A DNA stretch of 64,000 nt from a virus. Below the pieces are notes generated by a model. That model was given only the letters and a program-made list of their open reading frames with translations. It ran no database searches and was not told where the DNA came from. The translations under genes were made by a program, and so were the position numbers. The first letter of the stretch is position 1. Every line of letters begins with the position of its first letter. The stretch is taken from positions 1 to 64,000 of the IMG/VR virus record IMGVR_UViG_3300042452_000786, one strand, 5' to 3'. Positions 1,812-63,822 of the stretch are shown one piece after another.

Positions 1812-2136
1812 CTTTCGTGCGCTGTGCGTCGAGCTGCTCCAATTTGGAGATCAAGCAGGAGAAATTGCAGCAAATGAAGGACTGTGGCCGGATTGCGACC
1901 CAGGCCCTGATTGGCTGCTAGACCGAGCCCGCGCCGCCCTGGCCCAGCCTGAGCCGCAGGGGCCGACGGATGAGGAACTGTGTAAGTTTTTCCGTGCAAA
2001 TGATGATCTAATGCGACACTGTGAGGCGGGGACTGATTGGGATGAGCCCTTGATGACGGAGCATGAGTTTCCGGCGGTTGCCCGCGCCGTCCTCGCCCTC
2101 TGGGGCCGCACCGCCACTACCGGAGAACAACAATGA
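1804..2136 (+). CDS. modular hypothetical protein (MTDFRALC...AQPEPQGPTDEEL)
   Basis: GGAGG upstream; shares the AQPEPQG module with the next ORF. Confidence 0.65.
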   Translation: MTDFRALCVELLQFGDQAGEIAANEGLWPDCDPGPDWLLDRARAALAQPEPQGPTDEELCKFFRANDDLMRHCEAGTDWDEPLMTEHEFPAVARAVLALWGRTATTGEQQ

Positions 2137-2651
2137 CTGAATCCAATTTCCGTTCGCTGTGCCAAGAGCTGATGGATGCCATCGACTCTGGTATTCCTCG
2201 TGGACGTATCAAACAATCGCCACTTGCTGTTCGTGTTGACGCCGCGCTGGCCCAGCCCGAGCCGCAGGGGCTAATGCCCGAAGTAGATGACATTCTGCGT
2301 TTGGCTGCAATCATCCGTAGGGTTGACGGCAACCACGACAAAGGCGCTGCTGCGTTGGCGGAGGCAATCTTGAGCCATCCCGACAGCCGCTGGCAACACG
2401 CCCAGCCCGAGCCGCAGGGGCCGACGGGCCGCCCCACTATCGAGCCGGTGCCGGTGAGCGATCCGCCGGGGCCGGAGGATTGCGATGCGGAGGGGAGGTG
2501 TTGGTGGTTTTCACCTCCAGCCTGTGGGCCTAACACGATCCGTCCGTGCTGGACTTTTGACTCGGAAACTCTGGAAGGGGACACCCACTGGCTGCCCCAC
2601 TGGGCGCTGCCGGTGCCTGCACCCGCCAACACTATTAACCAGGAGGACTAA
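2133..2651 (+). CDS. modular hypothetical protein (two AQPEPQG modules; C-terminal CDAEGRCWW...THWLP module)
   Basis: ATGA coupling, internal repeats. Confidence 0.65.
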   Translation: MTESNFRSLCQELMDAIDSGIPRGRIKQSPLAVRVDAALAQPEPQGLMPEVDDILRLAAIIRRVDGNHDKGAAALAEAILSHPDSRWQHAQPEPQGPTGRPTIEPVPVSDPPGPEDCDAEGRCWWFSPPACGPNTIRPCWTFDSETLEGDTHWLPHWALPVPAPANTINQED

Positions 2652-59921: not shown

Positions 59922-61874
59922 TCAAACGATGGTGAAAGCTGCGGTGACGAAGTCCTTGTTCAGGTTGGCAAAGCCAGCGTACAGCTGCCAAATCAAGATG
60001 ATAAAGCGGCTGAAGTCATCGTTGTTGTTGATGAGAACCTGAGCGTTGGGGCCACCGATGCCCACGCCAACGGCCTGAGGACCGAAGAACAGAGCAGGAG
60101 GAGTGTTGTGAGACACAGCGCCGAGACCGTCGCCAGTGTCCACAGTGATGGACTTGTCAGCAAAGTTGGTGGACTCGAAGAAACGTACGCCTTCAAAGAC
60201 AAAGCCAGAAGGCATGATCGGTTCACCAGCCACGAATTGAGCTTGGCCGTACTGACCGCCGCCATAGATGGAGGCGTTGGGAGCCATGGCACCCATAAGG
60301 GGGTTAGGCTGGCCCATGCCAGGGTAACGAGCCACTTCACGGAAACCTTGGTCAGCACGCAGATCCTTCATGAAAGAGGGATCAGCAATACAGCGGTAGT
60401 AACCGTCAGCAAAGACAGGCACATTGCGCTTGCGGAGTTGCTTGACAACTTCCAGAAGGTCAGTTTTGACGTTGAACTTATAACGCTCAGAAGCGTATTC
60501 TGTAGCGGAATAAGCAGTCAGCGTGGTAGAGCCAGTCTTGATCTTACCGTTGGGGTAGTAGTAACCACCTTGGGTGTCAGAAGAGGCACCACGAGCTTCC
60601 GATTTCGAAAACTCATCAAGGAACACACGATCGCGCCAGCGGCGATAGTCGTCTAGCAGGGTCAGCGAACCGATGGACTGGTGGAACATGTTAAGGTTCC
60701 CGGTGTCCAGCAGCAGACGCTGAGCGGTCATCAGAGTCTCACGAGCAATTTTGAAAGTGCTCGGGAGGTTGGAGTTGTTCGGGTCGGCAGGACCAGTGTA
60801 CTCACGCAGAGAGACGAGCACTTTGTCCTTAACGATGGAGCGGCTATTAGCCGTACCAATCGTTTGGTCTTGGGTACGCTCACGCTGAGTTTTGGTGCCG
60901 GGGTTGCCCCAGAAACGGTACCGGTCTAACTGAACAGTTTGACCAGGCTGTTTAGTGAAGTCGTGGACAACAACAGGCTCGGCTGCCATTTCCACAATAT
61001 AAGCCGGGTGGGGACGGTACAGCTCCGCGCCCAACAGCTTGGGAAAATCGTTCTCCTGATCTCCAGTCTCCTGAAGGGGTGGACTATCTCTTCACCCTGT
61101 AAGGGTGCCGGGCGCTAATGGCGTATTACGAATGAAGCGTCATTCACCGCCTAGTCTCTGCACCTTCCAACTACGTACTTAGTTGGCTTGGCTCAGGATT
61201 ACCCTCGACTTGACGTTAGGGCTTCCCTGAATTCACCCGGTTTTCACTGATCAGTTGCCTGATCAGGCGACAACGTTGACTACTCAGCTAAGTCGTGTTA
61301 GGATTGGAATCAAGTTGTTTTTATACAACATGGAACCAAAACTTGTTCCTGGATTTGAAAACCTTTACTTGAGCTTTTCTGGGACTCCTTATCAAAAAAT
61401 CAATGAAGACTTTGTTGAATTAAAGGTCAGCTCATCAAGCATGTACGACAGGGTTTCTGTTCTTAAAAATGAAAAGAAAGAAAGGCACCATGTACACGTT
61501 CTTATGGCTGTGACATTTTTAGATTTAGATTTAGCTTTACACGGAACCGGAAGTGCTTCTCTTCAAGTTGATCACAAAGACGGAAACAAAAGAAACAATT
61601 CTCTTGAAAACCTTGAAGTTGTTACAAAAAGAGAGAATTACGATAGGGCGTTAAAAGCTGGGTGCTACTCTAAAAATGGTTACGCCAGTAAAGGTAGGCC
61701 AAAGAAAACATTAAGAAAGTTTTCGGAGGATGACATTGTGCAGATTAAAGAAATGAGATCAGACGGTCTTTCTTATAGAAAAATTGCTGCTTACTTTAAC
61801 TGCAATCACTTGGCCATTTATCAAATCTTAAAAGGAAAAACCTATCAGGATCTGAGTTAGCTATCGATAAACAT
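59922..61874 (-). CDS. major capsid protein, spliced: exon 1 61874-61863 (MFID) joined to exon 2 61052-59922 (NDFPKLLGAELYRP...), 380 aa
   Basis: HK97-like features (GQTVQL, GVRFFEST, FFGPQAVG, DDFSR..W); in-frame join across the group I intron. Confidence 0.88.
61276..61304 (+). promoter_or_regulatory. sigma70-type promoter for the intron HNH gene
   Basis: TTGACT-17 nt-TAGGAT with TG extension. Confidence 0.75.
61330..61860 (+). CDS. intron-encoded HNH homing endonuclease, antisense to the intron
   Basis: HVHVLMA..F...QVDHKDGNKRNNSLENLEVVT..EN; C-terminal HTH. Confidence 0.9.
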   Translation: MEPKLVPGFENLYLSFSGTPYQKINEDFVELKVSSSSMYDRVSVLKNEKKERHHVHVLMAVTFLDLDLALHGTGSASLQVDHKDGNKRNNSLENLEVVTKRENYDRALKAGCYSKNGYASKGRPKKTLRKFSEDDIVQIKEMRSDGLSYRKIAAYFNCNHLAIYQILKGKTYQDLS

Positions 61875-61989
61875 GTTGGTAATTCAGCGTAAGTTTTAGC
61901 TGAAACCAGGATCTGGAGGATCCTTGGGTACAGTAGTTTCCGGTTTCCCGTAACCGCTGCTTGCCTGGAACTTCCGTCCCATTGAAAAA

Positions 61990-61998
61990 ATTATAGCA
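61990..61998 (-). promoter_or_regulatory. extended -10 promoter of the capsid gene
   Basis: TGcTATAAT on the minus strand, ~115 nt upstream of ATG. Confidence 0.6.
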
Positions 61999-62026
61999 AC
62001 CCTTTATCAATCCAGATTATTTAAGT

Positions 62027-62290
62027 TCAGTAGTTGACCATATGCGGAGCATTGTGACCGGCAAGCATATTACCTGCTGTATATGACGTTGGAGCCATTG
62101 TACCGGTTGCTCGATAAGGATTGATGTAACCGTCTGCTGGTTGCAGTGAGATGGAAGAAGCTTGAACTTCAGGGTTAATTCCAGCGGTAGCACTCATCAT
62201 GCCAAGGGCTGCTGCTGGATCTTCCTGTTGCGCAGTTTTTTTACGACCTTTTGATTTGCTAACTGCTTTTTTTGCTTTTGCTTTGTCCAT
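62027..62290 (-). CDS. hypothetical protein with Lys-rich N-terminus
   Basis: Coupled ORF in the head module. Confidence 0.6.
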   Translation of the reverse strand: MDKAKAKKAVSKSKGRKKTAQQEDPAAALGMMSATAGINPEVQASSISLQPADGYINPYRATGTMAPTSYTAGNMLAGHNAPHMVNY

Positions 62291-62727
62291 CAGCGGTTAC
62301 CTTTCTTTTGGGGAACGGGAGGCATAATACCCATGGGAAGTTGTCCACGCATCGGCATCATTTGTGACATCATCATTTGCTCACTGGCGAGCATCTGATC
62401 TTGTGTAATTTCTGTTGCTTTAACATTACGATCTGTAAACAAACCATGTTGTGGCAACGGAGATCCTGGAAGGTTTAACTTTAGGTAGGCAGCATCCAGG
62501 TTTTGTGCCATTGGAGGTTGCGGAGCACGAGGATCACCAACACCGGTTCCGTCACTCATCATTCGCACAGCAGCAAAATGATCTGTGTTACCTGCTTGAA
62601 CCTGCTGTGCAAGATCGTAACCACCAAAACCAACCAATGAAGGTGAGCCAATTGGTCCGCCAGCTGTGCCAATACTGGCCAAGAACTGTTGCGTCCTGGC
62701 ACCCACACTGGCTTTTTTTGATGCCAT
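62290..62727 (-). CDS. hypothetical Met/Pro/Gln-rich protein
   Basis: ORF in the head module. Confidence 0.6.
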   Translation of the reverse strand: MASKKASVGARTQQFLASIGTAGGPIGSPSLVGFGGYDLAQQVQAGNTDHFAAVRMMSDGTGVGDPRAPQPPMAQNLDAAYLKLNLPGSPLPQHGLFTDRNVKATEITQDQMLASEQMMMSQMMPMRGQLPMGIMPPVPQKKGNR

Positions 62728-62735
62728 TTTTTTAG

Positions 62736-62767
62736 AAACAAAAACGGGGCAGCTATTGCTACCCCTT
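62736..62767 (-). terminator. intrinsic terminator after the scaffold gene
   Basis: Minus strand GGGGTAGC-AATA-GCTGCCCC-GTTTTTG. Confidence 0.75.
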
Positions 62768-62820
62768 ATTTTACAGTTACTATGTTTTCTAATAAACGGA
62801 TTATATCAACAATCCGAGTA

Positions 62821-63822
62821 TCACTCCATCACCATCAGCTTCTGACGGAAAGCATCGGGAGATGCCATGTTCAGATAGCGCCAGGCATTGGAAGGATCAC
62901 GTTCGGCCAGAGCACCAAAACCGTTCCAGAAGTCAGCGGGGTTGCCCTGAACTTGGGGCTGCGGGGGAGCAGGCATTTCAGGACGCTGAGGAGCCACAGG
63001 ACGCTGGAACTGTTGACCAACGGCTTGAGGGGCACGGCTGTAACCAATTTCTTCATCGGGCACCGGATAGGGGCCATTTTCACCGAAAAACTCACAAGTG
63101 TAGTCAGCCAGGACGTCCGGATCGGTCAGGATGGTCTCATAGGAGCGGTGCTCGTTAGAGAGTTCCTGGAGCAGACCAACAGCCTCAGTGAGCTGCTGGT
63201 TGGTAGCAATCAGAGCATCTTCTAACTGACACGCGTAGCTATTGAGAATAGCTGGCACGTCAGCACCGAAGTGATCAATGACCTGAAGACTAGCTTCGCT
63301 TACCCCGCTTGCGCGGAGTTGGTCCGGGCTGATTTCCTGCGAAGTTTGGGAATAACCGTTGGAGTAAGCCTGGTTGTTGTTGATCCCAGGCATAGAGGTC
63401 GGCATCCCCGCGTTGTTGTACTGGGGAACCGGTTGGGAATTGTAGTTGACCGGTGCGACTTGTTGGTTCGCGCTCGATTGTTGACCCTGGAACGGGAATT
63501 GGACGGGCGAACTCAGGAGCCCCACTACCCGGTTGAATGCCTCCTTGTAAGGGTTCTCCGATTGTGGTGCTGTTTGTTGGGGCGCCAGGGATTCCTGGTG
63601 GTAGTACGGTGTAGGGCTGGATTGGTAGTTGCTGACCCCCATCTGGGCCTGCATTTGCGGGGCTGGGGCCACCGCTTGCTGGTAAGGCGCCACCCATTGG
63701 GGAGACGTTGCCACCGCCGGGGCCTGAGCCGCCGTCTGTGCTACCGGAGCCGCGTAGCTGATCGGCTGGGTCTGGGATACTTGGGGTACCGATTGGATCG
63801 GCGCTGCGGTATCGGCCTGCAT
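62821..63822 (-). CDS. putative capsid scaffolding protein
   Basis: AGAGG Shine-Dalgarno; Q/P-rich disordered N-half, coiled coil, helical C-terminus; upstream of MCP. Confidence 0.65.
   Translation of the reverse strand: MQADTAAPIQSVPQVSQTQPISYAAPVAQTAAQAPAVATSPQWVAPYQQAVAPAPQMQAQMGVSNYQSSPTPYYHQESLAPQQTAPQSENPYKEAFNRVVGLLSSPVQFPFQGQQSSANQQVAPVNYNSQPVPQYNNAGMPTSMPGINNNQAYSNGYSQTSQEISPDQLRASGVSEASLQVIDHFGADVPAILNSYACQLEDALIATNQQLTEAVGLLQELSNEHRSYETILTDPDVLADYTCEFFGENGPYPVPDEEIGYSRAPQAVGQQFQRPVAPQRPEMPAPPQPQVQGNPADFWNGFGALAERDPSNAWRYLNMASPDAFRQKLMVME

Follow-up and report, generated by a model that had tools for sequence, protein, structure and literature searches.

A group I intron in a cyanophage major capsid gene with an opposite-strand HNH endonuclease gene in its P1 loop and a predicted promoter next to the internal guide

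In the stretch of 64,000 nucleotides analysed here, referred to below as the window, a mobile group I intron interrupts the gene for the major capsid protein of a freshwater cyanophage of the S-EIVl type. On the opposite strand and within the loop of its first helix P1, this intron carries a homing endonuclease gene. It is considered very likely that the element is mobile by means of this gene and that the gene is transcribed from a promoter of its own. The arrangement is described below from the exons inwards, followed by the signals that may drive the two genes and by the explanations that compete with this one.

The intron and its exons

On the minus strand, positions 61300..61060 match the group I intron family RF00028 of Rfam with 93.7 bits, where the gathering score is 50, and positions 1-253 of the model are matched in full. 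Combined with the boundaries given by intron-less alleles, this match defines an intron of 810 nt (61053..61862, minus strand) whose last base is the terminal G61053. The insertion point lies after codon 4 of the major capsid gene, 12 nt past the start codon. Exon 1 (61863..61874, minus strand) consists of ATG TTT ATC GAT, encoding the residues MFID found at the N-terminus of the S-EIVl protein and in 73 intron-less relatives. Exon 2 (59922..61052, minus strand), delimited by comparison with S-EIVl and with relatives from IMG/VR, opens with the codons AAC GAT TTT (N D F P K ...), and its product is 70% identical to the S-EIVl capsid protein and 88-97% identical to the proteins of the IMG/VR relatives.

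The S-EIVl capsid gene is devoid of intron, with an N-terminus reading MFIDTDFPK. Among the 78 closest capsid loci of IMG/VR, 73 display the uninterrupted junction ATGTTTATYGAT|AACGAT and five carry the intron. Its removal restores the reading frame of the intron-less alleles, with the exact junction found in these 73 loci and in S-EIVl. In the proposed mechanism, the minus-strand capsid pre-mRNA would self-splice and thereby restore MFID|NDFPK. If the intron is retained, ribosomes would halt just within it, at an in-frame stop read from the sequence (AGC UAA; 61857..61859, minus strand), which would end translation of the unspliced capsid mRNA and overlaps the stop codon of the endonuclease gene on the other strand. 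A capsid start located downstream of the intron (TTG at 61034), with exon 1 as a relic, was also considered; three observations led to its rejection, namely the conservation of exon 1, its covariation with the internal guide, and the fact that it directly adjoins exon 2 where the intron is missing.

Three metatranscriptome runs match small shares of the window, none of them over the intron or the endonuclease gene, and no plus-strand RNA was seen in them. RNA-library sequences from relatives, 85-91% identical to the window, include two contigs (X1 and X2) in which exon 2 continues straight into a relative's exon 1, and a third one (X3), about 91% identical to the window, that joins position 61051 to position 61862 and skips exactly 810 nt. 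Contigs skipping these 810 nt may come from intron-less relatives and are not counted as a proof of splicing.

The P1 loop and the HNH gene

The internal guide sequence CGUUGUCG (61268..61275, minus strand) forms P1 with exon 1 and P10 with the opening bases of exon 2. In P1 proper, the exon bases CGAU followed by the intron bases AGC (61860..61866, minus strand) face GUUGUCG of the guide (61274..61268), and each of the 64 distinct sequences, without exception, forms all seven pairs. The guide changes together with position -4 of the exon, as C-G in 21 of these sequences and as U-A in 43. The splice-site wobble is formed by U61863, the last base of exon 1, and G61271 of the guide. In P10, the AACG that follows G61053 is complementary to CGUU (61275..61272). 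Read from the sequence, the ligated exons CGAU-AACG are thus complementary to the guide over 8 bp. The Rfam alignment proposes a 'P1' of its own, a local hairpin with two mismatches, which was dropped in favour of the covarying exon-guide pairing.

P1 is prolonged by an extension helix of 6 bp, with ACUCAG as its 5' strand (61852..61857, minus strand) and CUGAGU as its 3' strand (61282..61287, minus strand). Both strands are identified by covariation, the helix occurring in at least six versions: ACUCAG/CUGAGU, GCUCAG/CUGAGC, GCUUAG/CUAAGC, GUUCAG/CUGAAC, GCUCCAC/GUGGAGC, and GCUUAU/AUAAGC. On the DNA strand opposite to the 5' strand, the same positions encode the last codons of the endonuclease. 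Together, P1 and its extension close a loop of about 560 nt, across which covariation is seen in the 64 distinct sequences, and this loop is almost wholly the reverse complement of the endonuclease gene. The long-range P1 is missing from the minimum-free-energy structure of the 846-nt pre-mRNA, a prediction that is uninformative for a loop of 560 nt; folding of a mini-construct recovered the extension helix only. Beyond the guide, the Rfam alignment delineates a P2 hairpin with an 8-bp stem and a GCAA loop (61247..61266, minus strand), and then the ribozyme core from P3 to P9, including an insertion of the P7.1/7.2 type (61060..61246, minus strand). The core is 76-96% identical across 98 related loci.

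The gene nested in the loop (61330..61860, plus strand) encodes an I-HmuI-like HNH homing endonuclease of 176 aa with an HTH-like region at its C-terminus. The protein matches the Pfam domain HNH_3 (PF13392) with an E-value of 5e-11 and 42.4 bits, for a cut-off of 24.8, and its best match in the PDB is I-HmuI itself (1U3E, E 2e-6). The C-terminal matches to HTH_38 (22.2 bits) and HTH_7 (18.4 bits) are weak, both lying under their cut-offs. In an alignment of 18 homologues, the invariant columns include H82, N94, and N103, the catalytic His and Asn being kept. The homologous ORFs of relatives, 174-181 aa in length, are all intact and evolve with a dN/dS of about 0.1 at a dS of 0.6-1.5. Directly before the start codon stands a short inverted repeat (61314..61329, plus strand) whose TGTT ... 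ACAA is invariant in 61 distinct sequences.

A previous reading of the sequence alone (the sequence-only reading) had placed this ORF antisense to the intron with its stop codon 2 nt from the 5' splice site. Both coordinates and intron-less alleles agree with that placement, the stop TAG occupying positions 61858-61860. The layout is conserved. Indeed, in the 98 loci that could be examined because the upstream DNA is present, where HNH homologues are 54-100% identical, the gene lies opposite to the ribozyme core and wholly inside the intron without exception. In all 98 loci, some 30 nt separate the end of the core from the HNH start codon, and the stop codon is separated from the 5' splice site by 2 nt, or by 6 nt in the most distant group.

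Promoter-like sites of the two genes

The HNH gene needs a transcription signal of its own, being the sole sizeable plus-strand gene within a structural module that spans more than 20 kb of the minus strand. A sigma-70-like promoter overlapping the P1 extension is predicted upstream of it and is supported by a conservation pattern among relatives such as expected of a promoter. The site combines a -35 hexamer TTGACT (61276..61281, plus strand), found by promoter scan, with an extended -10 element TG t TAGGAT (61296..61304, plus strand; TG at 61296-97, hexamer at 61299-304), the two hexamers being separated by a spacer of 17 nt. The -10 element ends 25 nt before the HNH ATG and sits just inside the P1 loop. 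On the RNA strand, the -35 hexamer corresponds to the internal loop between P1 and its extension. That this site adjoins the guide had been proposed from the sequence and holds, with a gap of 1 nt between the -35 and the guide. The companion claim, according to which the promoter overlaps the strand closing P1, stands in part: the first 6 nt of the spacer belong to a covarying helix, this helix being the P1 extension and not P1 proper.

A promoter scan of positions 60800-62900 returned this site as its single match. The region-wide count of promoters is not above that of shuffled sequences (3.0 +/- 1.9), but the score of the site is reached by only 1.1% of shuffled 75-nt upstream regions. Comparable TGnTAnnnT sites number 13 in the whole window, both strands included (128 kb of strand). 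At the homologous place, 22-26 nt from the start codon, TGnTAnnnT is present in about 60 of 70 distinct relatives. The bases kept in this set are TG, T-12, A-11, and T-7, together with a nearly invariant TTGA in the -35, whereas positions -10 to -8 vary almost at random. About 10 of the 70 relatives have no good -10 where it is usually found, and the TAGGAT of the window matches the consensus at only four of six positions. In a distant subgroup with a shorter helix, the best -35 shifts onto the complement of the guide sequence (GYGACA).

The capsid gene is preceded by a promoter-like site as well, a putative extended -10 element TGCTATAAT detected by motif scan about 115 nt before the capsid ATG (61990..61998, minus strand). 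Either TGCTATAAT or an equivalent TGCTAAAAT is conserved upstream of exon 1 in related loci. Both promoter-like sites are host-type, TGCTATAAT being a stronger match than the TGtTAGGAT of the HNH gene, and they converge at a distance of about 690 bp. The sequence-only reading had assigned the nuclease to an early phase driven by the host polymerase. This timing is not supported, the capsid gene itself having a host-type extended -10 site close to the consensus. The virus record yielded neither a phage RNA polymerase nor a sigma factor; with host-type sites before both genes, the use of the host polymerase therefore gives no separation in time.

According to the proposed explanation, the host RNA polymerase would transcribe the nuclease gene separately, on the plus strand and from its own promoter, with a start expected near 61311-61312. 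The backwards layout would separate the dosage of the nuclease from the very strong capsid transcript and would keep ribosomes off the ribozyme. Because the two promoters converge, the capsid RNA and the excised intron would be complementary to the whole nuclease mRNA, and they probably damp nuclease expression late in infection. That capsid RNA silences the nuclease in this way is no less likely than an effect of nuclease mRNA on the capsid, since the capsid gene has a near-consensus host-type promoter of its own.

Competing explanations and known systems

The promoter-like motif might instead have no promoter function and owe its conservation to constraints on the minus-strand RNA, the nuclease being expressed otherwise or hardly at all. 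Indeed, demonstrably structured RNA includes the -35 together with part of the spacer, an AGG in the spacer is conserved among relatives although promoters do not need it, and TTGA persists in distant loci despite a wrong spacing to the -10. The conservation of TTGA may thus reflect RNA reasons or descent and not promoter function. Nevertheless, the -10 element falls outside the covarying helix and has no pairing partner, and its fixed TG, T, A, and T around three free middle bases fit contacts with the polymerase and not a helix. Moreover, the strong purifying selection acting on the HNH gene implies that it must be expressed, and no upstream plus-strand gene is there to give read-through. 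This explanation is consequently judged quite improbable. A different possibility accepts the promoter and makes the nuclease mRNA, produced early by the host polymerase, an antisense temporal switch that extends past the 5' splice site through exon 1 and the ribosome-binding site of the capsid gene and delays capsid splicing or translation until late. It would be in line with the convergent promoter-like sites and with an HNH stop that, in every locus, is 2-6 nt away from the splice site. The plus strand of positions 60800-62900 showed no terminator-like site past this stop, so that the transcript may plausibly overlap exon 1 and the capsid ribosome-binding site. However, the host-type sites before both genes, the capsid one being the stronger, give no sign of an early timing; capsid RNA should far exceed nuclease mRNA, so that titration is unlikely late in infection; and in 73 of the 78 close relatives the capsid is produced although the element is absent, hence the capsid gene needs no such switch. 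The antisense control of capsid synthesis put forward in the sequence-only reading is accordingly a speculation, and a very improbable one. A broader proposal, still rather unlikely, is that the sharing of bases between promoter and ribozyme was itself selected. Initiation of the nuclease transcript by the host polymerase on the DNA of the guide and P1 extension and convergent capsid transcription across it would be mutually exclusive and, together with double-stranded RNA formed by the nuclease mRNA with the capsid pre-mRNA or the excised intron, would form a timer confining the nuclease to a pre-capsid window and possibly delaying the first capsid splicing.

The mobility of the intron has also to be weighed against a nuclease that no longer performs homing, either domesticated, for the exclusion of competitor phages or as a splicing helper, or residing in an immobile and vertically inherited intron. 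The age of the arrangement, with a dS near saturation within the family, and the restriction of the element to a single site would suit such a history. The distribution is nonetheless patchy, as a mobile element gives: the intron occurs at this same site in a minority (5/78) of capsid genes that are otherwise near-identical (88-97%). Furthermore, the catalytic residues are intact, and excluding intron-less competitors and homing are one and the same biochemical act. The loss of homing thus appears very doubtful. With a mobile intron, a mixed infection would expose capsid alleles lacking the intron to nicking or cutting by the enzyme near ...TTTATYGAT|AACGAT..., after which repair would copy the intron in.

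In textbook cases, the homing endonuclease gene of an intron shares the strand of that intron, and its expression must fit both the folding of the ribozyme and the transcription of the host gene. Genes of the I-HmuI type are encoded in the sense of their intron and occupy loops other than P1. I-HmuI, I-BasI, and I-TwoI from Bacillus and Staphylococcus phages as well as I-PfoP3I from the cyanophage Pf-WMP3 belong to the same nuclease family as the present protein and reside in phage group I introns of essential genes (PMC3428280). These enzymes are nicking endonucleases, to which the protein of the window is related through its HNH_3 domain and its match to 1U3E.

A capsid intron with an opposite-strand endonuclease gene is already known from the mycobacteriophage LittleE, with another nuclease family and another loop. 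The LittleE major capsid gene contains an intron of group I type, about 0.8 kb in length, whose splicing was shown experimentally (Pope et al. 2013, PMC3706429), whereas the intron described here is read from sequence. As verified at the locus, the endonuclease gene of LittleE is likewise internal to the intron and on the bottom strand, opposite to the capsid gene (PMC3706429). However, its product is LAGLIDADG-like and unrelated to the HNH protein (BLASTP E 50), and the gene stands 3' of a weak ribozyme match (30.7 bits) and not in P1. The LittleE intron is inserted well inside the capsid gene, whereas the present one follows codon 4, and neither a promoter nor an overlap with the guide region is described for LittleE (PMC3706429). 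Apart from LittleE, a literature search for group I introns of phages or bacteria whose endonuclease gene is on the opposite strand yielded only eukaryotic rDNA cases. Thus, nuclear rDNA introns with antisense His-Cys box genes, such as I-DirII of Didymium, share the opposite strand and the own promoter (PMC3073962, PMC9548176). They differ by a eukaryotic Pol II promoter, a spliceosomal intron, and a poly(A) tail, by an rRNA host gene, and by the nuclease family.

The loci examined here point to a large natural family, of about 100 loci and probably many more, that keeps its nuclease gene backwards in the P1 loop, the host gene of the intron being the most highly expressed gene of the phage. 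Bases are shared twice, between the predicted promoter and the guide region and between the last nuclease codons and a ribozyme helix. The sequence set, rich in covariation, is therefore suited to the study of DNA-level and RNA-level signals on the same bases, and the system can show how phages set the dose of a selfish nuclease and how a mobile intron is put together. For annotation, it is of consequence that the capsid gene of these phages comes out of gene callers split or truncated. A stretch 77% identical to the ribozyme core is also found in a tRNA cluster of Klebsiella jumbo phages, where the HNH gene is on the same strand, a different arrangement.

Intron boundaries and the P1 region

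The source IMG/VR virus record is 75.9 kb long and 88% complete, and its first 64 kb make up the window. The window carries its structural genes on the minus strand from ~37.5 kb on, and among cultured phages its capsid protein has a relative in the freshwater Synechococcus phage S-EIVl alone (70% identity). Since the capsid gene of S-EIVl is uninterrupted (it starts MFIDTDFPKILGAELY), exon 1 (ATG TTT ATC GAT, 61874..61863, minus strand) ends at 61863 and the remaining protein (NDFPKLLGAELY...) resumes in exon 2 from 61052 on the same strand, the intron is placed at 61862..61053 (minus strand, 810 nt), with a U before its first base and a G as its last base. Within it, a full-length group I intron match stands at 61300..61060 on the minus strand (Rfam, 93.7 bits; gathering score, 50). 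Searching IMG/VR for exon 2 yields at least 597 relatives. Of those that reach into the N-terminal region, the best 78 are 88-97% identical; 73 of them are intron-less, with ATGTTTATYGAT joined straight to AACGAT, and 5 bear the intron, which fixes the boundaries to the base. The intron is thus distributed among these sequences as patchily as a mobile element would be. Unspliced capsid mRNA would reach an immediate stop, AGC-UAA lying just past the splice site. The RNA libraries, which leave the intron and the HNH gene uncovered, include one contig devoid of exactly these 810 nt that may come from an intron-less relative. In one distant relative (L022), the capsid gene harbours two group I introns, the second (1877-2148, minus strand, 65.7 bits) following the first after ~94 nt, which leaves a very short middle exon between them; the capsid ORF there picks up only at about residue 75.

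P1 proper pairs exon CGAU and intron AGC with the guide strand GUUGUCG (61274..61268, minus strand). In a comparison set of 20 viral and 80 metagenome loci encoding HNH homologues (54-100% identity), all seven pairs form in 64 of 64 distinct strand combinations, and exon position -4 changes jointly with its guide partner (C-G, n=21; U-A, n=43). The ligated exons CGAU-AACG show 8-bp complementarity to CGUUGUCG, the expected P1/P10 guide arrangement. A second helix of 6 bp, starting from intron position +6, occurs in six or more versions in which changes on the two strands compensate each other, among others ACUCAG/CUGAGU (the window), GUUCAG/CUGAAC, GCUUAG/CUAAGC, and GCUCCAC/GUGGAGC, and its 5' strand doubles as the final HNH codons. 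Whereas energy-based folding does not recover the long-range pairs of P1 and its extension, covariation recovers both, and on this comparative ground the long-range P1 structure is real. The closing helix proposed in the sequence-only reading therefore holds as a real, covarying structure under another label: P1 proper being the exon/guide pairing, the helix named there is the P1 extension.

The antisense HNH gene and its putative promoter

The HNH ORF (61330-61860, plus strand) encodes 176 aa; an HNH_3 domain is recognised in them (E 5e-11), the C-terminus matches HTH models weakly, and the closest solved structure is I-HmuI, an intron-encoded nicking enzyme (1U3E, E 2e-6). Its stop codon at 61858-61860 stands 2 nt off the 5' splice site (intron start at 61862), as first read from the sequence. 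Intron and HNH gene occupy opposite strands in all 20 viral loci (Rfam), the same geometry is found in 98 of 98 loci with upstream DNA (blastn with the window's core; the match ends ~30 nt before the start codon), and the insertion point is the same capsid site in all related loci. The homologous ORFs are all intact (174-181 aa), with invariant catalytic residues and a dN/dS of ~0.1, synonymous sites being near saturation. ORF, intron boundaries, and strand layout across loci agree on an antisense gene within the P1 loop, as had been proposed, and the comparison marks this backwards layout as a stable design rather than an accident.

The conserved HNH start is the ATG at 61330, with no Shine-Dalgarno sequence before it. 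The frame is open for 25 further codons upstream (61255-61329, plus strand), through promoter, P1, and P2 DNA, so that for some relatives gene callers report longer products (181-198 aa). The start is adjoined by an inverted repeat (61314-61329, plus strand) whose TGTT ... ACAA is invariant in 61 of 61 distinct main-family sequences. The repeat may fold as a hairpin at the 5' end of the nuclease mRNA or serve as an RNA element of the minus strand; its minus-strand copy contains GUUGU, letters shared with the guide. The gene lies in a stretch of low G+C (61300-62800, 0.34-0.46 versus ~0.55 in the structural genes either side) that also takes in two small ORFs of the minus strand (62027-62290 and 62290-62727), both free of Pfam matches. 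In two related loci, L086 and L102, an extra ~630 nt are inserted into the ribozyme core, between its positions ~150 and ~184. The L102 insert (695-1297, minus, the intron's own strand) codes in sense orientation for a 200-aa LAGLIDADG_2 endonuclease (E 2e-27). This single intron thus carries an endonuclease gene on either strand, the HNH gene running backwards in P1 and the LAGLIDADG gene forwards within the core, a reading that concerns L102, where ORFs were listed, the evidence in L086 being the split core match.

The putative HNH promoter comprises a -35 TTGACT (61276-61281, plus strand) and a -10 TAGGAT (61299-61304) separated by a 17-nt spacer, with TG at 61296-61297. It is the sole promoter-like match in 60800-62900, a count that is not significant as shuffles give 3.0 +/- 1.9; its score is reached by just 1.1% of shuffled upstream regions, and the whole window, both strands counted, has no more than 13 comparable TGnTAnnnT sites. 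Across 70 distinct upstream sequences, TG, T-12, A-11, and T-7 keep a fixed distance of 22-26 nt to the start codon, with almost random bases at positions -10 to -8; the -35 is nearly invariant in its TTGA, and 49 of the sequences have a 17-nt spacing. Best-site scoring favours A-11 and T-7 by construction, and the fairer measure, alignment of 61 sequences, gives T in 59 and A in 54. About ten sequences have no good -10 at the usual position, and the most distant subgroup has a shorter helix region with its best -35 on the guide complement (GYGACA). Shuffle score, site rarity, and the telling pattern of conserved contact bases support the predicted sigma-70-like promoter of the antisense gene.

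On the RNA strand, P1 extension and P1 are separated by an internal loop whose 3' side is the -35, 1 nt off the guide; spacer bases 1-6 constitute the extension helix's 3' strand, and the -10 is located just within the P1 loop. That the same bases act as DNA signal and RNA structure is supported by the comparison for spacer and helix. For the -35, such dual use is plausible: TTGA is also preserved where the -35/-10 spacing is wrong, and it may be kept for RNA reasons.

Transcription of the nuclease and capsid genes

The capsid gene is preceded by a near-consensus putative extended -10 (61998..61990, minus strand, TGCTATAAT), conserved in relatives as TGCTATAAT or TGCTAAAAT. Searches of the 88% complete record for a T7-type polymerase and for sigma-70 region 2 came up empty, the polymerase search having no positive control. 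With both promoter-like sites of host type, both genes look host-transcribed, and early expression of the nuclease, as suggested from the sequence, stays a suggestion: nothing marks the nuclease as early, and the capsid site is host-type as well. The two sites face each other over ~690 bp, and past the HNH stop there is no terminator-like site, so the predicted RNAs are likely to overlap. As capsid RNA is probably in excess over nuclease RNA, capsid transcription is no less likely to damp the nuclease than the nuclease RNA is to act on the capsid gene as the temporal switch proposed from the sequence, which stays speculative; 73 of 78 close relatives express their capsid without the intron element. 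The capsid 5' leader (61875-61990, minus strand, ~115 nt) is conserved in blocks, at GGGACGGAAGTTCCAGG and at a UUCAGC...GCUGAA hairpin immediately before the start codon, and intron-less relatives have such a hairpin too.

Opposite-strand endonuclease genes in other introns

A literature search for opposite-strand endonuclease genes in introns retrieved only eukaryotic rDNA cases. In the rDNA intron of I-DirII, for instance, the endonuclease gene has its own Pol II promoter (PMC3073962, PMC9548176). A phage precedent exists as well: mycobacteriophage LittleE includes a capsid intron with an opposite-strand endonuclease gene (PMC3706429). Opposite-strand orientation is thus already known and not a new kind; new here are the P1 loop, the I-HmuI-type enzyme, and the promoter overlapping the guide region. 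The LittleE endonuclease is LAGLIDADG-like, with no kinship to the present HNH (BLASTP E 50). Its gene occupies another part of the intron, 3' of the ribozyme match, which is weak (30.7 bits), whereas the cyanophage gene sits in the P1 loop. Phage capsid genes have thus acquired the layout at least twice independently. The cyanophage intron offers a clean, covariation-rich natural system for dual-use bases and nuclease dosing.

In the Alcyoneusvirus jumbo phages phiKp_21 and Muenster of Klebsiella (L204/L205, 1801-1966), an unannotated stretch inside a tRNA gene cluster is 77% identical to the ribozyme core and may be an intron. The neighbouring gene on the same strand in Muenster is annotated as an HNH endonuclease, and that in the corresponding position in phiKp_21 only as a hypothetical protein.
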